Program-made: the position numbers and the translations under genes
The notes under the pieces: model-generated
The model's input: the letters and a program-made list of their open reading frames with translations, nothing else
Told to the model about the DNA's origin: nothing
Database searches by the model: none
Virus record (IMG/VR): IMGVR_UViG_3300035182_000826
Span: 32,001-96,000 of that record
Direction: 5' to 3' (one strand)
DNA: 64,000 bases
Source of the DNA: a virus
Shown here: positions 8,605 to 62,849 of the stretch, in pieces
Position numbering within the stretch: position 1 is the stretch's first letter
How the letters are laid out: every line of letters starts with the position of its first letter

Positions 8605-9545
8605 GCACAGTTTACGAAATTGTCTTTCTTGACAATGACCCAGCATCAGATAGCTATGGCGAAATTGCCAGACTGCCAGACTTAGGGATCATTAACGCTG
8701 GTGGAACTGTTGGTCCAACTTTCTATGTTGGTGATAAACCGCTCTTGTTCGCTGATGGAACTGCTACTGATGGTAGTGCATCGGCAGTCCTGTCAATCAC
8801 CCTTCAGAGTGCCTATGACAAAGGGAACAACATAAATCTGACAGCCGGTCGTGATTTGGTTTTTACCAGCACTTCTGGAAAAAAGGTTGTCGTTGATTCG
8901 AACACTGGCAAGGTCACAATTGACGGTGACCTTGCGGTAAAGGGTGACAGTACTACAGTTGAAGGCACGATCTACAACGTTGATCAGGTTGACATCAACC
9001 CGCCTAATGGGGCCATTACAGGGCTGATCATCAAGCCTGAAGCTGGTGTCACAATGACATCAGACCTTGTCCAGATTTCAGTGCAGAATGCCGGACCAAC
9101 AGTTTTTAGCATTGATGCTGCCGGTGTCACCCATATCGCCTCTCTTGATGTAGGCATAGTGAATGGGTATGACTTCTCATTGCTCGCGGCCAGCATCACT
9201 GATCACTTAAACGGATCTGGCATCAAGCACACTGGAACTGAAATCTCAGTTGCAGGCCCCTTCACAACATTGGTTGGCACGAATGTTGAAGAGGTGCTTG
9301 AATCCATTGATCAACACCTTGTAACACAGGCGGCTGAAATCCGCACATATGAGCATGTGCAAACCGTGAGCGCTGCGCATTGGCTCGTACAGCACAACAA
9401 GGCAAGCACACGACCAACGGTCACAATTTATGGTGATGATGGTTTTCAGTTCTGGCCTGATGAGATTCAAATTGTTGATCAAAATACCATTTCGATTTTC
9501 TTCAACTCACCAACTACCGGAAGAGCAGTAATTTTGTTGTTCTAA
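8601..9545 (+). CDS. Virion fibre-associated protein with C-terminal W..xHN module
   Basis: ATGA overlap with upstream gene; C-terminal WLVQHNK...PTVTIY module shared with neighbouring genes. Confidence 0.55.
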   Translation: MSTVYEIVFLDNDPASDSYGEIARLPDLGIINAGGTVGPTFYVGDKPLLFADGTATDGSASAVLSITLQSAYDKGNNINLTAGRDLVFTSTSGKKVVVDSNTGKVTIDGDLAVKGDSTTVEGTIYNVDQVDINPPNGAITGLIIKPEAGVTMTSDLVQISVQNAGPTVFSIDAAGVTHIASLDVGIVNGYDFSLLAASITDHLNGSGIKHTGTEISVAGPFTTLVGTNVEEVLESIDQHLVTQAAEIRTYEHVQTVSAAHWLVQHNKASTRPTVTIYGDDGFQFWPDEIQIVDQNTISIFFNSPTTGRAVILLF

Positions 9546-18115: not shown

Positions 18116-18225
18116 CCGGGTGTCGCCGGCTCACACCAAAATGCTCACCTATAGAACTTTATGTATTTTGAGACCGGTGTGAGCCGGGCCTCACCGGTGT
18201 CGCCGAGGGTGTACCCCGCTTAAGG
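18116..18225 (+). repeat. Palindromic element, variant copy with unrelated centre
   Basis: CCGGCTCACACC ... CCGGTGTGAGCCGGGCCTCACCGGTGTCGCCGAGG arms around an AT-rich centre. Confidence 0.8.
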
Positions 18226-18320
18226 TCGCCAGTTTCTGAGAAGGTGGCGCTTAGGAAGGAAGCACTGCGTTGCAGTTGCTTTATTGGCTGAACTGGCGTA
18301 CGCCTCACCACAAAGAACAC

Positions 18321-18523
18321 CTTCTAATTTGACACCTTTAAGTGCGGCACAAATGGCGCCCCACCTTAAGCGATAGAGCACACCCTCGGCGACACCGGTG
18401 AGGTCCGGCTCACACCGGCTAAGTGCTGTGCATAACTTATTGGCTGACCTGTCTGGTTTGAGCCGGCGTCGCCTCGTGTCGCCGGATGATGTTGAACCCG
18501 CTATCTGTCGGCTAATGCGCTCT
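18321..18523 (-). repeat. Palindromic element (flip centre) with 32-bp motif and tail
   Basis: Reverse complement closely matches 61096-61290; core 18386-18485, centre 18419-18452, 32-mer 18492-18523. Confidence 0.9.
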
Positions 18524-22354: not shown

Positions 22355-22738
22355 TCAGGTCATGCTGAATTCAAGCTTCAGCGTTTCAGTGATGTTCAAT
22401 TCCACATAGTACAAGTCCATGAATGCAGCGATCATGTTGTTGTCTGGCAGCACCTGAATTGACAGATCCTTGAGCTGTAGTCTAGGGTCGTAGTCAACCG
22501 CCTTTTGCAAATCAGCCTTGATGATTTCCAATGTCTTTTGATCAGCCTGTTCAAAGGTAAGGAGTGGAATTCTCGTGCCAAATGATGGCATTCCAACACG
22601 CTCACCTGGTACAGTGTAAATGAAGTTCAACAAGTCCTGCTTTACAAGCTCAAGGTTCGTAAGCATGAACCCAGCCTTCTTGTCCTGCAAGAAGTTAGCC
22701 GTGCTGAACCCGCGATAAAGTGGTAGTGCTCTAGCCAT
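22355..22738 (-). CDS. gp25: Baseplate wedge subunit (gp25-like)
   Basis: YRGFS...L.N...T.PGER...P.FG..I..L.FE...YDPR; start taken at MARALP. Confidence 0.85.
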   Translation of the reverse strand: MARALPLYRGFSTANFLQDKKAGFMLTNLELVKQDLLNFIYTVPGERVGMPSFGTRIPLLTFEQADQKTLEIIKADLQKAVDYDPRLQLKDLSIQVLPDNNMIAAFMDLYYVELNITETLKLEFSMT

Positions 22739-23823
22739 CATGCTTTCCAATTCTTGTTTCTTGTCATAGATGAAGCAGCTCTAGTCCATGGCTCGTGTGT
22801 TGGCACGATCGTTGGGCTTTCAGGGCAGCTCGCGCTTTCAGCGGTTGGCCCATTCAGGTGAATGTTTGCTCCAGTCTGAATGATGTTCCCGCCGGCTAAC
22901 AAATTCATAGCTGCGCCAGAATCAATATTTACCCCCTTACCTGAGATGTTGAAATCATCACAGGCGGCTTGGTACATGCTACCGGTTGATTGAAGGTGAA
23001 TGTTTGCCGCTGACACTTTGAAGTCACCAACACAGGTGATGTTCATGTCACCACCAGTGCTGACACCAATGTCACCCTCGGCGTAAACATGGACACGTCC
23101 ATCCTGATCAAGTTCAATCCACGACCTGCCTTGAGCGGTTGAAACGTAAATCCGCTCATTAGCGTCGTCCATAATGAGCTGATGTCCAGCTGCGGTCTTG
23201 ATTCTGACTCTTCCAGTTGCAGGATTATCCTGCATGATGATTGAGTGCCTGCCGGGTGTTGTGATGCAGTATGTTTGCGGATCAAGTGCCGCAGAGTCAA
23301 CTACATCAGTCTGATAGCCTTCAGTTCCATCTTTCTCAGTCTTGTCCTGCGCGACGGCGCGCTCATAGACGCCACGAGTCTGTGCTTCACTGGCCGTAAG
23401 CTTGTTGTTGAACTGCACTTTCAGATTTGCAGCAGCAGGCTGAACTGGCTCAAACGTGTCAGTCAACGGGCCTGCTGCAATGTCAGGTCTGTTCCGCCCA
23501 GCAGGCAGTGATCTGTTTCCGTGGTCTCTGAAATATGAACCAACGTAGACACGGCGGTTTGGATCATTGTATAGGAAATCGACGTAGCAGAGGGCACCAG
23601 CCTTTGGTGGTGCCCAGAAGCCATATGAGACAAGTCCAGATGAAACTGTTCCGGCTGGACCGGCCGGGAAATCACGTGTCTGCCCCCCAATTGGGGTTGC
23701 GTACGAAGCCCATGGCAAATCTTGAATGGAGTATTCATCACCATCAACCGACGGCACCCAGATTTTTAGACGCCCCATTTGCTGGGGATCATTAGTGTCA
23801 AGCACAACGCCTTCACGCAGCAT
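22738..23823 (-). CDS. gp5: Baseplate hub/spike (gp5/VgrG-like OB-fold and beta-helix)
   Basis: G.V....DP...GRLK......LPWA, PP..G...V.F, GH...MDD...ERI, C-terminal IHLNG. Confidence 0.8.
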   Translation of the reverse strand: MLREGVVLDTNDPQQMGRLKIWVPSVDGDEYSIQDLPWASYATPIGGQTRDFPAGPAGTVSSGLVSYGFWAPPKAGALCYVDFLYNDPNRRVYVGSYFRDHGNRSLPAGRNRPDIAAGPLTDTFEPVQPAAANLKVQFNNKLTASEAQTRGVYERAVAQDKTEKDGTEGYQTDVVDSAALDPQTYCITTPGRHSIIMQDNPATGRVRIKTAAGHQLIMDDANERIYVSTAQGRSWIELDQDGRVHVYAEGDIGVSTGGDMNITCVGDFKVSAANIHLQSTGSMYQAACDDFNISGKGVNIDSGAAMNLLAGGNIIQTGANIHLNGPTAESASCPESPTIVPTHEPWTRAASSMTRNKNWKA

Positions 23824-33433: not shown

Positions 33434-33481
33434 CCTAAGTTGAGGTCGCATGGGTTATTGGCGCTAGGTACAATAACCCAT

Positions 33482-34750
33482 ATGGAGCACTTAGAAAAAA
33501 GCAGCATTCTTCATTGGACTCGGTTCTATCCGAATCTGAAGCGCGTGCATTCTGAAAAAGTCAAAGATCGGCAAGAGATGATCTTGCATGTTGCCGCTCT
33601 TTGGAAACACTCACAGGCAAAAATGACCCCAAACGGGCTTTGTTCAATCAAAGTCCCTTTGACACAACTCAGAGAAAATCTAAGAGACTATCGAGCTGTT
33701 GTTGATCACTTCTTCGATGTTCGACAGCTAGGCTTCAAGATTGAAGACACATTTGAGTTGTCTACACTGACACCAAAGATTCTTCCACCTACAGAGGAAG
33801 ATGAGATTTGTGGGATTGTAAATGAACTCCAATACCACGTCCCACCAAGGCCTGATGATTGCGTCATCAGCAAGGTCTATCTGCAAGAAAACATTGATTG
33901 GGACTACATCTTCGAGCGGCTGAGCCGTTCACCTCGTCCTGACATTATCTTGCAGTTGAAGTGGCTACGACACCAGCCACCTGAACTAAACTTTCACTTC
34001 AAACCAGCTGGCAAGTTGGGCCTGCGCGACACCTCTGTGTGGCCGATCAAGGGCATTGAGAACTGGCCAACATGGCTTCGTGAGCGATTGTTTGGGACAG
34101 CAGTCGATCTTGACTCTGCTTACGTGCAGTTCCTTGTGAACACGCTTCGAAAAGAGATTCCAGAAGATCAACTCGGGGCGCTGTTTCCTGATCTGCTGAA
34201 GCTGTTGGCAGACAAAGAGGCGTTCAGACGAGAGCTCTGTGAAGAAATCCTGATGGTGGAATACACCAAGGAACACAAGGGCGTCATGAAGAACATCTTG
34301 ATGTCACTTGCGAATGGATCTCGCATTTCAGCCAGCGTGATCTTGAATGCTGCTAGGCACTCTGCGGTGGCTGAAATGATCCTCGATATTGTCCCAACTG
34401 CAAGCGCTGATGATTTGATAAGGATTGGTGATAGGTTGAGGTCAATCAGCAGACAGTTTGACAATGCCAGAAAGATGATCTGCATTGCGCTGTTCAAGAA
34501 AGCCCCAACAAACGAGAACAAAAAGTCAGTGTTCAGTTCGTATTTCATGTGGGAGCGTGAAGCGCGATACATGATTTGGGAGGCCTTTGAACGGCATGGA
34601 ATTATGGCACACGACGGGCTAGATGGTATTCCTGCAAAGTACCTGACTGATCTGCCAAAGGTCATGAATGATCTACACCTTAAGCTCAGTGTTAAAGGTA
34701 TGGCCGGTGCCACCGAGGCGACGCCGGCTCACACCGAACAGAAAGAATGA
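33482..34750 (+). CDS. Putative minimal family-A/T7-RNAP-like polymerase-fold protein
   Basis: Candidate motif A VDLDSAY, motif B KGVMKNILMSLANGS, motif C IMAHDGL in the right order; start taken at MEHLEK. Confidence 0.5.
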   Translation: MEHLEKSSILHWTRFYPNLKRVHSEKVKDRQEMILHVAALWKHSQAKMTPNGLCSIKVPLTQLRENLRDYRAVVDHFFDVRQLGFKIEDTFELSTLTPKILPPTEEDEICGIVNELQYHVPPRPDDCVISKVYLQENIDWDYIFERLSRSPRPDIILQLKWLRHQPPELNFHFKPAGKLGLRDTSVWPIKGIENWPTWLRERLFGTAVDLDSAYVQFLVNTLRKEIPEDQLGALFPDLLKLLADKEAFRRELCEEILMVEYTKEHKGVMKNILMSLANGSRISASVILNAARHSAVAEMILDIVPTASADDLIRIGDRLRSISRQFDNARKMICIALFKKAPTNENKKSVFSSYFMWEREARYMIWEAFERHGIMAHDGLDGIPAKYLTDLPKVMNDLHLKLSVKGMAGATEATPAHTEQKE

Positions 34751-37419: not shown

Positions 37420-37454
37420 AAGAAAAAGGGAGCCACATGGCTCCCTTTTTTCTT
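37420..37454. terminator. Bidirectional intrinsic terminator
   Basis: AAGAAAAAGGGAGCCA-CA-TGGCTCCCTTTTTTCTT. Confidence 0.85.
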
Positions 37455-37469
37455 ATGCCTACGAGATCA

Positions 37470-37625
37470 CCTTCTAATTTGACACCTTTTCTTAAGTGCA
37501 GCGCGTCTTAGGCGATAGAGCACACCCTCGGCGACACCGGTGAGGCCCGGCTCACGCCGGACAGTTCAGCCAATAAGTTATGCACGGCACTTAGCCGAGG
37601 CGAGCCGGTGTCGCCTCGTGTCGCC
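37470..37625 (-). repeat. Palindromic element (flop centre)
   Basis: Same arms and tail as 18321-18485 but centre 37561-37594 is the reverse complement. Confidence 0.9.
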
Positions 37626-37639
37626 AAGGGTAACAGGCG

Positions 37640-38223: not shown

Positions 38224-38727
38224 TCAGTTTACCTTTAGGACATCTTTTGCATACAAACGGGCATAATCTGGGTCTTTCGCAATTGCGGCTTCGCCTTTAG
38301 GAAATGGCGCCTTTAGGACATCTCTCGCGTAGAAATACGCATAATATGAGTCTTTCGCAATTGCGGCTTCGCCTTTAGGAAATGGCGCCTTTAGGACATC
38401 TCTCGCGTACCAATACGCATACTTTGGGTCTTTCGCAATTGCGCCCTCGCCTTTAGGAAATGGCGCCTTTAGGACATCTCTCGCGTACGCAAATGCAAAC
38501 CCTGGGTCTTTCGCAATGGCGGCTTCGCCTTTAGGAAATGGCGCCTTTAGGACCTCTACCGCGTACGCATATGCATACTCTGGGTCTTTCGCAATTGCGT
38601 CCTCCCTCTTCTTCATCTCTTCTGGGTTGTTCTTGTACTTCTCCCAGATGAATTCAGGAACGGAATCATGAGCTGCATCATAATGCAGCAAGGTCTCAGG
38701 TTGTGAATGGTATTTGTACAGATACAT
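38224..38727 (-). CDS. 26-aa tandem repeat protein
   Basis: MYLYKYHSQPETLLHYDAAHDSVPEF leader plus about 5 near-identical 78-bp repeats. Confidence 0.88.
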   Translation of the reverse strand: MYLYKYHSQPETLLHYDAAHDSVPEFIWEKYKNNPEEMKKREDAIAKDPEYAYAYAVEVLKAPFPKGEAAIAKDPGFAFAYARDVLKAPFPKGEGAIAKDPKYAYWYARDVLKAPFPKGEAAIAKDSYYAYFYARDVLKAPFPKGEAAIAKDPDYARLYAKDVLKVN

Positions 38728-43686: not shown

Positions 43687-43996
43687 ATGAACCTGTACTT
43701 CTTACACAGCAATCTAGCATCATTGCTTCATCATGAGGCCGCCCATGAGTCAATTCCTGAGCTCTTTTGGTATGACTACATTTTTGATATTCATGATTTG
43801 GACTGGTTAAAGAAGCGTGAAGGCGCCCTGCTAAGGATCCAAAGTTTGCATACCTATACGCAAGTATTGCGCTCAAAGCACCATTCCCAAAAGGCGAAGC
43901 TGCGATTGCAAAGACCACAACTTATTCAAAAGAGTATGCAAAAAAAGGTTCTTCATGCCGTACCATGATGGTAAACTGATTACGAAGGCGAAGTGA
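43687..43996 (+). pseudogene. Frameshifted repeat-protein gene
   Basis: Family leader, frameshift near 43829, then AKDPKFAYLYASIALKAPFPKGEAAIAK in another frame and a YHDGKLI terminus. Confidence 0.75.
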
Positions 43997-44532
43997 TGTA
44001 TCTGTACAAATACCATTCACAACCTGAGACCTTGCTGCATTATGATGCAGCTCATGATTCCGTTCCTGAATTCATCTGGGAGAAGTACAAGAAGAACCCA
44101 GAAAAGATGAAGATGAAGAAGAGGGAGGACGCAATTGCGAAACACCCAGGGTATGCATTTGTGTACGCGAGAGATGTCCTAAAGGCGCCATTTCCTAAAG
44201 GCGAGGACACAATTGCGAAAGACACAAGGTATGCATTTGCGTACGCGAGAGATGTCCTAAAGGCGCCATTTCCTAAAGGCGAGGGCGCCATTGCGAAAGA
44301 CACAAGGTATGCGTATTTGTATGCGAAAGAGGTCCTAATGGCGCCATTTCCTAAAGGCGAGGGCGCCATTGCGAAAGACCCAGAGTATGCGTATTTGTAC
44401 GCGAGAGATGTCCTAAAGGCGCCATTTCCTAAAGGCGAGGGCGCCATTGCGAAAGACTCATATTATGCGTATTTGTATGCGAAAGATGTCCTAAAGGCAC
44501 CATTTCCTAAAGGCGAGGCTGCTGACTTCTAA
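43993..44532 (+). CDS. 26-aa tandem repeat protein
   Basis: Leader plus 5 repeats of 78 bp; ends GEAADF. Confidence 0.88.
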   Translation: MMYLYKYHSQPETLLHYDAAHDSVPEFIWEKYKKNPEKMKMKKREDAIAKHPGYAFVYARDVLKAPFPKGEDTIAKDTRYAFAYARDVLKAPFPKGEGAIAKDTRYAYLYAKEVLMAPFPKGEGAIAKDPEYAYLYARDVLKAPFPKGEGAIAKDSYYAYLYAKDVLKAPFPKGEAADF

Positions 44533-44556
44533 TCTGAACCTAGTTGGAAAACTAAA

Positions 44557-45261
44557 ATGAATCTGTACAAGTACTATTCACAACCTAACACCTTGCTGCA
44601 TTATGATGCAGCTCATGACTCCGTTCCTGAATTGATCTGGAAGAAGTACGAGAACAACCCAGAAAAGATGAAGAAGAGGGAGGACGCAATTGCGAAACAC
44701 CCAGGGTATGCATTTGCGTACGCGAGAGATGTCCTAATGGCGCCATTTCCTAAAGGCGAGGACACAATTGCGAAAGACACAAGGTATGCGTATTTGTATG
44801 CGAAAGAGGTCCTAAAGGCGCCATTTCCTAAAGGCGAAGCCGCAATTGCGAAAGACCCAGAGTATGCGCGTTTGTACGCGAGAGAAGTCCTAAAGGCGCC
44901 ATTTCCTAAAGGCGAGGACGCAATTGCGAAAGATCCAGGGCCTGCATTTGGGTACGCGAGAGATGTCCTAAAGGCACCATTTCCTAAAGGCGAGGCTGCA
45001 ATTGCGAAAGATCCAGAGTATGCGTATTGGTACGCGGTAGATGTCCTAATGGCGCCATTTCCTAAAGGCGAAGCCGCAATTGCGAAAGACCCCATGAAAT
45101 CATATTTGTACGCCAGATTCGTGATTAGGGGCCGTTGGCCTAAAGGTGAAGCCGCGATTGCAAAGAGCCAAACGCAATCACAACTCTACGCAACCTACGT
45201 GCTCCACGGTGACTTTATCCTGAATGGGAAAACAATTTACAAAATGAACAAGGAATCATGA
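44557..45261 (+). CDS. 26-aa tandem repeat protein
   Basis: Leader plus 6-7 repeats with a divergent capping repeat. Confidence 0.88.
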   Translation: MNLYKYYSQPNTLLHYDAAHDSVPELIWKKYENNPEKMKKREDAIAKHPGYAFAYARDVLMAPFPKGEDTIAKDTRYAYLYAKEVLKAPFPKGEAAIAKDPEYARLYAREVLKAPFPKGEDAIAKDPGPAFGYARDVLKAPFPKGEAAIAKDPEYAYWYAVDVLMAPFPKGEAAIAKDPMKSYLYARFVIRGRWPKGEAAIAKSQTQSQLYATYVLHGDFILNGKTIYKMNKES

Positions 45262-58974: not shown

Positions 58975-59044
58975 AGTGTGTTTGGTCCATCAAGCCCTGA
59001 AGAACTCGCAAGAATGGCTTCTGGCTTGAAGTCACGGAAAGACA

Positions 59045-59074
59045 AAGGGGCTCAGTGAGCCCCCTTTTCTTTTT
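59045..59074 (+). terminator. Intrinsic terminator
   Basis: GGGGCTCA-G-TGAGCCCC followed by T tract. Confidence 0.8.
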
Positions 59075-59124
59075 GTCCCGTGCGAAAAGTAATCCTCTGC
59101 CTTGTGCAGGTGTATGATTCACAA

Positions 59125-59430
59125 ATGAAGAGCACTTACACTGTTAGATTGTCATCTCACAAAATGGCGATTCTTGATACGGTGGATTACTACGGCCGTG
59201 GCCGTATCATCACCAGAATCAATGTGCCTGTTGAATTCACTGGTAAAGGTCATGGACGAGACCTTCTGGCGCAGGTCATCGCGGATGCTGATCGAGACGG
59301 GGTGACGTTGTTCCTGGAAATCTTCAGTACAGGAGCGATGTTATATGATGAGCTTGAGGCATGGTATATGCGTCATGGTTTCAAGCGGTGGAAGGGTGTG
59401 TACAGACGGGTTCCTGAGGTGAAGAAATGA
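59125..59430 (+). CDS. GNAT-family acetyltransferase
   Basis: INVP.EF.GKGHG..LL acetyl-CoA motif; WY.RHGF. Confidence 0.75.
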   Translation: MKSTYTVRLSSHKMAILDTVDYYGRGRIITRINVPVEFTGKGHGRDLLAQVIADADRDGVTLFLEIFSTGAMLYDELEAWYMRHGFKRWKGVYRRVPEVKK

Positions 59431-59876
59431 AACTGAAGAACGTCAAGAACACGAGAGGCGCCGTCCAAGTCCGGCGGCCGCGAAACCTTCAGCAAACAAA
59501 GATGTCACTTGTTTCTCGGATCGCCAATGAGACACGTATCTGGGCTGAACGCACGAACGAAAAGCTTGACGATCCATTTGATTCAAATCTAACGGGCATG
59601 TGTGCGATCGCCGCGGCACGCCTGTTCCTGAATCTGCAAAAAGAAAAGATTGATGCACGGATCGTTGCGAACAATCTTCACTGCTTTGTGACATGTGATG
59701 ACATTGTGGTTGACGTGACTGCATCGCAATTTGGCTATTCTGATGTCACGGTCATCAAGCGCGATATCGCAGAAAAGATCGACCATTGGAAGACAGTGCA
59801 TGTCTTTGAAGATGTTGATGCACTTGTGAAGTGGCAACTTGATTCCCGTTGGCCGCCGAACCAGATTGCTGACTAA
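59427..59876 (+). CDS. Hypothetical protein with papain/transglutaminase-like Cys-His-Asp pattern
   Basis: GMCAIAA...HCFV...VDVTASQF. Confidence 0.5.
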   Translation: MKLKNVKNTRGAVQVRRPRNLQQTKMSLVSRIANETRIWAERTNEKLDDPFDSNLTGMCAIAAARLFLNLQKEKIDARIVANNLHCFVTCDDIVVDVTASQFGYSDVTVIKRDIAEKIDHWKTVHVFEDVDALVKWQLDSRWPPNQIAD

Positions 59877-59894
59877 ACACTTCCATAGGAGTGA

Positions 59895-60116
59895 TTCAAG
59901 TTCATCAAGAACTTCGACGCATACCCGTTTGACGTTGAAATCAGGGGCGAATTCTCCGTGTACTTGTAGAACTGGATCGTGTTCTGGCCGTTCTACCTGA
60001 TCGATCTTTTCATTGGCCGAGGCCTGCGTGAATGGTCAAGGCGGATTTCCACCCACTTTGGCAAGATCTTCCAGTACATGCTGGACTCATCTGCCTCGTC
60101 CAAGTTCAAGAGCTAA
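59895..60116 (+). pseudogene. Gene fragment with internal TAG (membrane-protein-like)
   Basis: FKFIKNF...SVYL*NWIVFWPFYLIDLF...KFKS*; no start codon. Confidence 0.4.
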
Positions 60117-60134
60117 TCCATCACAATCAGGATT

Positions 60135-60157
60135 AAAAGGGCCATTTGGCCCTTTTC
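60135..60157 (+). terminator. Intrinsic terminator
   Basis: AAAAGGGCCA-TT-TGGCCCTTTT. Confidence 0.8.
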
Positions 60158-60364
60158 TTGTTTCTGAGATCTAACATCTCGGACATTACATGTGGCTTGC
60201 ACATCATCTCTGTCAAGTTCTGATGTCAACCAAATCAATCACTGCCGAGCATGGTGCTAGGCACCTGATTTGTGTGCCGTACTCGATCGACAATCTTCAT
60301 GTCAAATCCGCGCGTATCACAGAGATTGAGAGCCAATGACGGATTGTTAGCTCTAGAGTCATTA

Positions 60365-61690
60365 TGCGCATTAGCCGCGCGGGTTCAACGCGGGCCGGCG
60401 ACACGAGGCGACGCCGGCTCACCTCGACTAAGTGCTGTGCATAACTTATTGCCCGCACTGTCCGGTGTGAGCCGGACCTCACCGGTGTCGCCGAGGTGGT
60501 GCTCTATCGCTTAAGGCGAGCTGCACTTAAGCAAAGGTGTCAAATTAGGTGGTGTTCTTTGTGGTAAGGTGTTCTTTGTTTGTGTGCAGTGTGCGCAGAG
60601 CGCATTAGCCGACGAATAGCGGGTTCAATGGATTCTTCAATGGATTCTTCAATGGATTCTTCATTGGAGAGAGGTGATCAGTTCTTCATTGGAGTCAGTC
60701 ATAGTCGCTCTCACAGCGCGTGCTCATAGAGCGCATTAGCCGACGAATAGCGGGTTCAACGGGTTCGTAGGTGACCAGTTCTTCAGGTTCTTCATTGGAG
60801 TGAGGGTGGTGCTCTTAGTGGTGAGGCGTACACAGAGCGCATTAGCCGACGAATAGCGGGTTCAATGGGTTCAATGGGTTCAATGGGTTCAATGGATTCA
60901 ATGGATTCAATGGATTCAATGGATTCAATGGATTCAATGGATTCAATGGATTCAATGGATTCAATGGATTCAATGGATTCAATGGATTCAATGGATTCAA
61001 TGGATTCAATGGATTCTTCATTGGAGTAGGTGGTCAGTTCTTCAGGTTCTTCATTGGAGTAGGTGGTGTTCTTTGTGTTTGTGTGTGGTGCTCATAGAGC
61101 GCATTAGCCGACGAATAGCGGGTTCAATATCATCCGGCGACACGAGGCGACGCCGGCTCACACCGGACAGTACAGCCAATAAGTTATGCATAGCACATAG
61201 CCGGTGTGAGCCGGACCTCACCGGTGTCGCCGAGGCTGTGCTCTATCGCTTATGGCGAACTGCACTTAAGAAATGTGTCAAATTAGGTGGTGTGCTCACA
61301 GTGCGCGCTCATAGAGCGCATTAGCCGACGAATAGCGGGTTCAATGGATTCTTCATTGGAGTAGATGATCAGTTCTTCATTGGAGTGGGGGTCAGTTTTT
61401 GTGGTGAGGCGTTCACAGAGCGCATTAGCCGACAGATAGCGGGTTCAATGGATTCTTCAACAAGTTCTTCATTGGAGTGGGTGGTCAGTTGCTCACAGTG
61501 CAGTGTGCGCAGAGCGCATTAGCCGACGAATAGCGGGTTCAATGGATTCTTCACGCAGTGTGTACACAGAGCGCATTAGCCGAGCACCACCTCGGCGACA
61601 CGAGGCGACGCCGGCTCACCCCGTATTAGCGACTCAATAAGTTATGCACCACATAGGCCCGGCAATTGCCGGGCCACCACCGGCAAAACC
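60365..61690 (+). repeat. Non-coding repeat complex: seven 32-bp direct repeats, three palindromic elements, 9-bp microsatellite; candidate origin
   Basis: AGAGCGCATTAGCCGACGAATAGCGGGTTCAA at 60597, 60728, 60834, 61096, 61313, 61417 (variant), 61511; palindromes at 60395, 61134, 61592. Confidence 0.92.
60864..61016 (+). repeat. 9-bp tandem repeat, 17 units
   Basis: (AATGGGTTC)3(AATGGATTC)14. Confidence 0.95.
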
Positions 61691-61724
61691 CAAGCACAGT
61701 GTGCTAAGGTGCCTAGGTTTCTTA

Positions 61725-61862
61725 AAATGTCACTATGACATTCGAAGCCTGGCTGGACGACTACTACGCATGAGCAAGTTCTGGTACATGATCGGCATTG
61801 ACCAATTTCTGCATATGCTCACGTATCTGGGTTTCGTTGCGTTTTTGTGTGGAGTACATTAA
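61725..61862 (+). pseudogene. C-terminal fragment resembling DUF3307 membrane protein
   Basis: HYDI...FWYMIGIDQFLHMLTY; 5' part runs into the repeat complex. Confidence 0.45.
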
Positions 61863-62182
61863 TGGTTTCGATTGCAAAGACAATTGACCAAGAGGTCGAA
61901 AGAATTGTTCTTGAACATGTCAGGTATCAGACATCTGATGATGATCTTGAGCTAATTGATCTTCGGCGTCCATTTGAGGATCTGACAATTGACAGTCTAG
62001 ATTTGATTGAGATTGTCATGATGTGTGAAGATGATCTGGACCCCCTGATCACCCGTTTGAATAACGCTGGAGAAAATATCAGCCACGAAGTTTCTTACAT
62101 CCCAGAAGAAATTGTTGAAAATTTCAAGACCCCTTATGACATCATCGTTTACGCGCAAAACAAATTGAAGGAGAATTTGTAA
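61862..62182 (+). CDS. Acyl carrier protein-like
   Basis: F.DL.IDSLDLIEIVM..ED...IPEE..E.F.T..DII.Y; acidic; GGAG RBS before ATG 61862. Confidence 0.75.
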   Translation: MVSIAKTIDQEVERIVLEHVRYQTSDDDLELIDLRRPFEDLTIDSLDLIEIVMMCEDDLDPLITRLNNAGENISHEVSYIPEEIVENFKTPYDIIVYAQNKLKENL

Positions 62183-62324
62183 TGATCCATGGAACACGCT
62201 CCCACTCAGTTAAGAAGAACCGTGAAGTTCACGTTGCTGAATATGCAGAGGCACTTGTCGAATATCACACTCGACTGCTCCAAGATCTGGAACTTGGTTC
62301 TTCTCTCTCCTTCTGAGGTTACCT

Positions 62325-62849
62325 ATGATTGAATACAACAGCATTGATGAACTTAATCGAAAGCTCCGGGAAGCAGATGCTTCCCCGGTCAATGACTGGG
62401 CTGATGACATTCGTGCAATGCATGTGAAATTTGGTGTCCGTGAAGTCATTCAGAAGCTTGACAATGAAAAGCTCATGGCGTTCATTGAGTTCCGATTGAA
62501 GTTCCTGGCTGAAGAACTCACTGAGGCCCAGGACGCATTCGCGAAGCTGAAGAGCCTCCAGGCAGCTGAGCTGACACCGAACGCAAAGTCTGAAGGTCTG
62601 AGCGCTGCTGATGACATTGTTGACGCAATGATTGACCTGTGTGTCGTTGCGATTGGCACGCTCGACGCGCTGAGTGTTGACTCATACCTAGCTTGGCGTC
62701 GTGTTCATGGCGCCAATATGGCTAAGGAACCTGGTGTGAAGGCAACTCGACCAAATCCACTAGGATTACCAGATCTGATCAAGCCTGAGGGTTGGACAGC
62801 CCCAACACACAGTGACAACATTGGCCAGCTTAAGCAGCTGATTGGTTGA
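62325..62849 (+). CDS. MazG-like all-alpha NTP pyrophosphohydrolase
   Basis: EEL.E, D...DL.VV, V..ANM.K, L.KPEGW..P. Confidence 0.85.
   Translation: MIEYNSIDELNRKLREADASPVNDWADDIRAMHVKFGVREVIQKLDNEKLMAFIEFRLKFLAEELTEAQDAFAKLKSLQAAELTPNAKSEGLSAADDIVDAMIDLCVVAIGTLDALSVDSYLAWRRVHGANMAKEPGVKATRPNPLGLPDLIKPEGWTAPTHSDNIGQLKQLIG

Follow-up and report, generated by a model that had tools for sequence, protein, structure and literature searches.

Short inverted repeats are a documented source of small inversions. Template switching between such repeats was, as cited in PMC8604942, first proposed for phage T4, and the inversion of spacers and loops by this route has been documented (PMC8604942, PMC8794818), with spacers of 2 to 8 nt in the yeast and rRNA studies and loop inversions of 4 to 8 nt in rRNA hairpins (PMC8794818). 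In quasi-palindrome mutation of the Ripley type (PMC8604942, PMC8794818, PMC7202029), the spacer is exactly reverse-complemented with its length and the arms unchanged, imperfect arms are made perfect by templated patches, no recombinase is involved, and the events recur and are reversible; the small hairpin-associated inversions of plastids (PMC12371153) belong to the same class. Two further systems are related by architecture. The PeSL (promoter-early stem-loop) elements of T4-type phages (PMC2839356, PMC4122927) are composite intergenic repeats that combine a stem-loop with a conserved promoter-like box, cluster in variable regions, and exchange sequence between copies by homologous recombination. 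The BIME-1 elements of Escherichia coli (RIB/RIP; PMC3333891) consist of two unlike inverted REPs separated by a long, conserved linker in which an IHF site is often found. Here we describe a 98-bp imperfect palindrome, dispersed in the genome of a T4-related phage, that shares the above features of quasi-palindrome mutation. Unlike the described template-switch cases, its main spacer is 34 nt long and the events are nested at three scales in a dispersed multicopy repeat, so that copy-to-copy conversion is an added route. The two orientations in which its center is found are most likely the fixed footprint of DNA-copying errors at inverted repeats rather than a genetic switch.

The window (the whole stretch of 64 kb that was analyzed) comprises bases 32001-96000 of a 161,452-bp IMG/VR virus record (contig G000), which is estimated to be 45% complete; positions below are those of the window unless the contig is named. 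The major capsid protein shares 52% identity with its counterpart in Ralstonia phage RsoM2USA and 45-52% with those in Xanthomonas phages Xoo-sp13 and XacN1, and the phage genes include a T4-type baseplate wedge protein, a DnaB-like helicase, a primase, and an endonuclease VII homologue. An earlier note, made from the sequence alone, had spoken of a T4-like phage, which is right in the broad sense of an uncultivated jumbo T4-related phage.

Anatomy and orientation of the palindrome

In the palindrome, the outer stem is 9 bp long and is followed by an asymmetric 9x9 internal loop, an inner stem of 14 bp (CCGGCTCACACCGG/CCGGTGTGAGCCGG), and a loop of 34 nt, the first arm reading CCTCGGCGACAC-CGGTGAGGT-CCGGCTCACACCGG and the second CCGGTGTGAGCCGG-CGTCGCCTC-GTGTCGCCGG. 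In some copies, the outermost 12 bp form perfect inverted repeats, and the inner stem of copy D has three mismatches. The predicted ssDNA fold contains the same 9-bp outer stem, 9x9 internal loop, 14-bp inner stem, and open loop, with energies of -28 to -30 kcal/mol and z scores of -2.9 to -6.0 (DNA MFE -27.9 kcal/mol and z -2.9 for copy A; -30.3 kcal/mol and z -6.0 for copy B). Within the center, a 14-nt core (CAATAAGTTATGCA) is flanked on either side by 10 variable nucleotides, the variable columns numbering 8/10, 1/14, and 4/10 from one side to the other. The window contains 5 occurrences of the core, where 0.66 would be expected, and 10 of the 14-bp inner arm, where 0.29 would be expected. 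The window holds four full copies of the palindrome (A to D; Table 1), and counting across the 161-kb contig, as the earlier note had proposed, gives 11 full and three half copies at seven loci. The full copies span 98-99 bp in 11 of 11 cases in the contig, and the inversions described below are thus length preserving.

The hairpin is one module of a larger noncoding cassette made up of a 32-mer, a short spacer, a tail, the hairpin, and a further 32-mer. The order within the unit is tail, hairpin, a 5- to 6-nt spacer, and the 32-mer GTTGAACCCGCTATTCGTCGGCTAATGCGCTC, and the tail has the consensus CTAATTTGACACC ... CTTAAG ... GCGATAGAGCAC. The 32-mer is present in 28 copies in the contig, twice the hairpin count, with examples at window 60598-61543 and 18491-18522. 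In most cases, a GCGC-based mini-hairpin and a CTCCAATGAAGAAC box come after it. The cassettes occur singly or stacked in three ORF-free arrays of 1-2 kb, the isolated palindromes being C, D, and one at contig 156.5 kb. In the arrays that lie upstream of genes (n = 2), the cassette is directed toward the downstream gene, namely, a 2,893-aa ORF at contig 24593 in one case and an ORF at contig 122506 in the other; the cassette of the window array is directed leftward, and the 32-mer of copy C runs into a convergent baseplate gene at the 3' end of that gene. In the half copies at contig 8635-8700 and 22683-22740, one arm and the core are followed 8 nt later by an intrinsic terminator (AAGGGCACC...GGTGCCCTT and a T-run). 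The core together with a terminator may be an older unit around which the palindrome grew.

Table 1. Features of the palindrome family and its surroundings, in window coordinates except where the contig is named
Feature	Position	Strand	Details
Copy A	60395..60496	+	left arm 60395-60427, majority center 60428-60461, right arm 60462-60494
Tail module of copy A	60497..60555	+	GCTCTATCGCTTAAGG ... GTGTCAAATTAG
Shortened 32-mer adjoining copy A	60357..60390	-	sigma-70 scan: TTGAAC-16-CATAAT
Copy B	61134..61235	+	left arm 61134-61166, minority center 61167-61200, right arm 61201-61233
Tail module of copy B	61236..61290	+	
32-mer abutting copy B	61097..61128	-	GTTGAACCCGCTATTCGTCGGCTAATGCGCTC family
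Half copy	61590..61676	+	left arm, minority core 61635-61648, unrelated hairpin GGCCCGGCAATTGCCGGGCC replacing right arm
Copy C	18387..18484	-	minority center 18419-18452; tail 18320-18386; 32-mer 18491-18522 (+)
Diverged relative	18118..18206	+	inner arms and right arm as in the palindrome; left arm truncated; loop of 36 nt unrelated; back to back with copy C
Copy D	37529..37626	-	majority center 37561-37594; tail 37470-37528; no 32-mer
Terminator hairpin	37428..37445	+	GGGAGCC-ACAT-GGCTCCC
Isolated left-arm fragment	34714..34737	+	GAGGCGACGCCGGCTCACACCG, 22 nt; in last codons of ORF 33440-34750
Array 1 of hairpins and 32-mers	contig 22.55-24.59 kb		ORF-free
Array 2 of hairpins and 32-mers	59876-61847		ORF-free
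Array 3 of hairpins and 32-mers	contig 121.4-122.5 kb		ORF-free

Each copy was oriented by its asymmetric outer arms and its tail. Relative to these, the centers of copies B and C read in one orientation and those of A and D as the reverse complement, as the earlier note had described; its coordinates and sequences for the element are correct throughout, and the flip/flop anatomy is real. In the whole contig, the orientation of B and C is the minority one, seen in 2 of the 11 full copies and in two half copies (window 61590-61676/contig 93635 and contig 8635). The center equals its own reverse complement at just 4-8 of 34 positions, i.e., it is not self-complementary, and the two minority centers match the other nine at 25-32 of 34 positions after reverse-complementing against 4-8 of 34 as they stand. 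The orientation of each center is therefore unambiguous. Orientation of the core relative to the genome strand shows no significant bias (11 of 14 on the + strand). The earlier note had also pointed to a CCTCG variant of the inner left arm as shared by A and D and compatible with their descent from a single old inversion. The variant is indeed present in both copies, but it does not mark the orientation class, since the canonical arm is found in six of the nine majority copies, and CCTCG-related inner-arm variants occur also in two half copies of the minority class.

Inversions, templated patches, and exchange among copies

Inversion is also seen in shorter segments, and the inverted stretches of 34, 6, and 4 nt have different boundaries. 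In the middle of the inner arm, the 6-nt CTCACA is replaced by TGTGAG in contig copies 22982 and 122399. The centers of copies 122399 and 156498 are identical, and the two copies differ in the 6-nt loop and one stem base; thus, the flip in 122399 is recent. The flipped loop of this copy lies between perfect 12-bp stems, GGTGAGGTCCGG and CCGGACCTCACC. A still smaller flip concerns the terminator hairpin near copy D, where one metagenome contig (L133) carries TG in place of CA at 37436-37437 as the sole difference in 1,155 bp. As a result, the loop, which is enclosed by perfect 12-bp stems, reads ATGT, the reverse complement of ACAT. The ATGT state is found in one of five metagenome contigs, and ACAT in the four others and in the window, making this flip a polymorphism among environmental samples of the phage.

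The arms have also left their imprint on the centers. In five copies (23458, 24424, 122036, 122399, and 156498 of the contig), the first 8-11 nt of the center are the complement of the adjacent arm, and these arm-templated patches produce perfect palindromes of 12-15 bp around CTCACA. In copy 24424, a stretch of 15 nt (CCGGACCTCACCGGT) exactly matches the arm's opposite strand, so that a quasi-palindrome has been made perfect by about 5 substitutions clustered in 10 nt. Such patches are the classic signature of quasi-palindrome correction (PMC8604942, PMC7202029).

Contigs of the same phage (99.4-100% identical), found by exact-protein look-up of the flanking genes, came from five JGI samples, namely, 3300035180, 3300035181, 3300035661, 3300036715, and 3300037010, and from two SRA runs, SRR11723144 and SRR11727985. 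Each locus shows a single orientation in them: copy D is oriented alike in five contigs (L129-L133) and copy C in two (L134 and L135), copies A and B show no difference in L225, the one contig to span both, and the half copy at 61590-61676 is unchanged in L226 to L228 and in the part of it covered by L229. Hence, among the 1-5 other spanning contigs per locus, none presents the alternative state of the 34-nt center; these orientations are those of consensus assemblies, which cannot show minority orientations, and contigs often end within the arms, as expected of repeats.

The same comparison catches the copies in the act of exchange. In one contig (L132), the tail of copy D has been overwritten with the variant of other copies, with seven changes in 24 nt relative to window 37502-37525. 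Ectopic gene conversion among the dispersed copies is thereby seen directly, and the copies exchange sequence on population timescales. Center identities are 32/34 for C and D, 31/34 for B and copy 23902, and 30/34 for B and C (D and 23902 being majority copies), and B and C carry different tail variants. This hints at two separate inversions behind B and C, although a single inversion followed by conversion is also possible because the separating differences amount to only 1-2 nt.

Three further differences between the window and these contigs lie outside the palindromes. Substitutions clustered at 38332-38518 relative to L132 and L129 fall in a 167-aa repeat-protein gene (38224-38727) and match paralogues at 43996-45049 with 88-93% identity, which looks like gene conversion among multicopy genes for proteins with 26-aa repeats. 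A 20-bp insertion (TAGAGGTACTTTGGATCAGT) at a TGCA/TGCA junction is present relative to window 37765 in the contig of one sample only (L130). In one sample (L227), a complex multinucleotide replacement at 62214-62222, inside a small ORF, converts AGAAGAACCG to CGTCTCACGTCT; it may be another templated mutation, for which we identified no source.

Origin of the two orientations

Template switching at inverted repeats, which the earlier note had listed among the possible generators of such isomers, fits these data best, and taken as a whole, inversion of the spacer mediated by the inverted repeats and free of any recombinase is the probable origin of the flip/flop. We infer that the isomers, fixed and specific to each locus, were made in this way. 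During replication, the nascent strand would jump to the complementary template in one 14-bp arm and return in the other; an equivalent route would be a short-homology exchange between the two arms or with an oppositely oriented copy. A dedicated recombinase would be unnecessary for either. The same process would flip the 6-nt loop nested in the inner arm as well as ordinary terminator loops and would write the arm-templated patches into the loop. Two marks of the template-switch class are found here: the spacer is an exact reverse complement with its length and arms kept, and clustered changes that perfect the palindrome are templated from the other arm. The nesting of the events and the 4-nt flip that still segregates agree with this class as well. 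Ancestral and derived states at one orthologous locus are seen for the 4-nt terminator loop; the 34-nt center is monomorphic per locus in the contigs found, and its ancestral and derived states are read from copy counts only, since no locus was caught in both. The 34-nt spacer, much longer than those documented, is the weak point of the template-switch reading, and the large flip may in fact have come about by short-homology recombination or antiparallel gene conversion, a serious alternative.

Antiparallel ectopic gene conversion would have an opposite-strand copy donate its center through the two 14-bp homologies, whereby it is installed flipped; such an event would be recombination as opposed to template switching by a polymerase. 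Both inner arms do read alike when the donor is aligned in reverse, copies are present on both strands, ectopic conversion between copies is seen directly in L132, and T4-type phages recombine very actively according to the discussion in PMC2839356; moreover, a 34-nt spacer is long for a template switch. However, no exact donor of the B or C center exists in the 161 kb, 14 bp is a very short homology, and conversion fails to explain the flips of the 6-nt and 4-nt loops and the arm-templated patches. We regard it as unlikely.

It is rather more doubtful that the palindrome is a REPIN/BIME-like or MITE-like element moved as an ssDNA hairpin by a HUH enzyme of the RAYT type, with the isomers arising during mobilization. 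The dispersal over seven loci at constant length, the perfect outermost inverted repeats of some copies, and the pairing of two unlike inverted arms with a long, conserved linker between them, which BIME-1 of E. coli also has (PMC3333891), would suit such an element, and the earlier note had entertained a REPIN-like mobile unit. Against this, the contig has no match to the Y1 transposase profile (PF01797), no target-site duplication or empty site was identified, and the copies lie within a larger shuffled cassette that has 32-mers at its bounds. Since the 32-mers frame copies on both sides, spread and loss by homologous recombination are suggested instead, a mode known from PeSL cassettes (PMC2839356, PMC4122927). 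The nearest homologues of the flanking 307-aa gene (38-41% identical) have neither an intergenic gap nor the element, but this comparison is no true empty-site test because synteny on the far side is lost.

Searches for relatives of the element were negative, and its absence from prokaryotic genomes and from IMG/VR also speaks against mobility. Neither of two scans of 185,579 bacterial and archaeal genomes found a related hairpin or arm, and a host REP source was thus not found. In IMG/VR, a 20-mer of the arm retrieved three coding look-alikes in which the remainder of the element is missing, both exact and degenerate forms of the 32-mer as well as a degenerate hairpin pattern had 0 matches, and protein-based locus searches yielded nothing usable. 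The 14-nt core alone gave single chance matches only, and a metagenome scan with a 19-mer gave 87 chance matches in GC-rich contigs, none with other modules. A blastn search of 60300-61750 against 50,697 phage records had no match, the three nearest isolated phages (RsoM2USA, Xoo-sp13, and XacN1) contain neither the core nor the 32-mer, and Rfam at gathering thresholds found nothing in the window.

A programmed switch, in which a phage or host recombinase turns the center and thereby toggles a promoter, an origin, or a packaging signal, was among the readings favored by the earlier note. Both orientations do exist, the core is strongly conserved (1 of 14 variable columns against 12 of 20 in its flanks), and the element adjoins the conserved promoter-like 32-mer. 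Yet every locus keeps one orientation across all spanning contigs; such fixation had been named in the earlier note itself as evidence against the switch, and finding it in the spanning assemblies weakens that reading. The contig also lacks the further occurrences of the core that a promoter would have. Like the earlier note, which had recognized no recombinase or HUH transposase in the window, we found no match to PF00589 (Phage_integrase), PF00239 (Resolvase), or PF01797 (Y1_Tnp) in the 161 kb, and control genomes did match; the searches cover about 45% of the phage genome, and a recombinase could lie in the other 55% or so. Inversion by a recombinase requires the DNA to loop, and the segments known to be inverted in this way measure hundreds of base pairs. 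To our knowledge, 34, 6, and 4 bp are far below the length of any segment inverted by a recombinase, and one enzyme acting at defined sites does not fit flips of these sizes, because their boundaries differ between events. We thus hold a switch to be very improbable. Hairpin-primed (rolling-hairpin or telomere-like) replication, with flip/flop by hairpin transfer as at parvovirus termini, can hardly apply even though flip/flop of an asymmetric hairpin is its hallmark and the contig encodes an endonuclease VII homologue putatively able to cut cruciforms, for terminal-hairpin flip/flop is inapplicable to copies that are internal, at seven loci and in tandem arrays rather than at genome ends, the arms do not flip along with the center, and the phage has T4-type replication genes.

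Spacer inversion at inverted repeats would make this T4-related phage a clear, internally controlled case of one process inverting hairpin spacers at 34, 6, and 4 nt, with one of the events still polymorphic among environmental samples. Flipped hairpin loops are of a known kind, and the element is notable mainly for its long flipped spacer and for the three nested scales within one element. It extends the size range of apparent spacer inversions well past 2-8 nt. If the phage can be isolated, it would provide a natural substrate to measure template switching against short-homology recombination in T4-type replication. For annotation, the case warns that flip/flop isomers in dispersed repeats need not mean a switch, a hairpin telomere, or a transposon.

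Likeness to PeSL and BIME-1 and possible roles of the cassette

The invariant 14-nt core in both orientations suggests that its recognition would be independent of orientation. A reader of the loop would then be indifferent to the flip, for instance, by recognizing duplex or cruciform DNA, and the flip would be nearly neutral because the loop would be read regardless of its orientation; this could account for the persistence of both isomers.

Like PeSL, the element is a composite intergenic repeat of a stem-loop and a conserved promoter-like box, found in a T4-related phage, which clusters in variable regions and whose copies exchange sequence, as seen in L132. In contrast to PeSL, the 32-mer is no sigma-70 consensus promoter: a consensus scan of 59000-62400 called 0 standard 32-mers and only the shortened variant beside copy A, the standard form showing by eye TTGAAC, a 15-nt spacer, and TAATGC. 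Further differences are the size of the hairpin (~100 bp), its large conserved loop, and the absence of a U-tract (it is predicted to be stable, with no T-run after it); the arrays are ORF-poor, essentially devoid of ORFs, instead of flanking ORFans, and the sequences are not similar. By this comparison, the element would resemble PeSL somewhat but appears to lack the promoter that defines it.

The resemblance to BIME-1 lies in the nonidentical inverted palindromic arms around a conserved long linker and in the intergenic position, often at gene ends; two inverted palindromes with a linker, in many copies, agree with REPIN/BIME elements in architecture only. Unlike BIME-1, the element resides in a phage rather than a chromosome and has neither a GTAG foot motif nor a RAYT. 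The central portion of the IHF consensus, CAAnnnnTTA, is present in the loop core, and WAT is absent; this partial match is only a lead because WAT is missing and about 4% of loops are expected to match by chance. A role as a cruciform-forming, BIME-1-like architectural site, whose core would be bound by an IHF-like bender of the host or the phage either way round and whose enzyme-free flipping, ongoing in the phage population, would alter the reading of the adjacent 32-mer unit as a form of recombinase-independent phase variation, appears improbable.

Several minor features accompany the cassettes. On the minus strand, the shortened 32-mer faces a bidirectional terminator (AAAAGGGCCAAATGGCCCTTTT) at 60135-60156, about 220 nt off, making the minus strand of 60135-60390 a candidate for a small transcript, possibly with an ORF of 21 aa. 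Two tandem repeats, one with 17.3 copies of a 9-bp unit (TTCAATGGA) at 60861-61016 and one with 3.8 copies of a 12-bp unit at 60624-60668, amplify the bases with which the 32-mer starts (CCATTGAAC). The minus-strand ORF at 60842-61021 is an artifact of the 9-bp repeat. The 32-mer contains GGTTCAA, which was considered as a tRNA T-arm and rejected; ARAGORN finds nothing in the window. Finally, the isolated left-arm fragment in the last codons of the gene at 33440-34750 raises the possibility that the C-terminus of its product was built on a relic of the palindrome.
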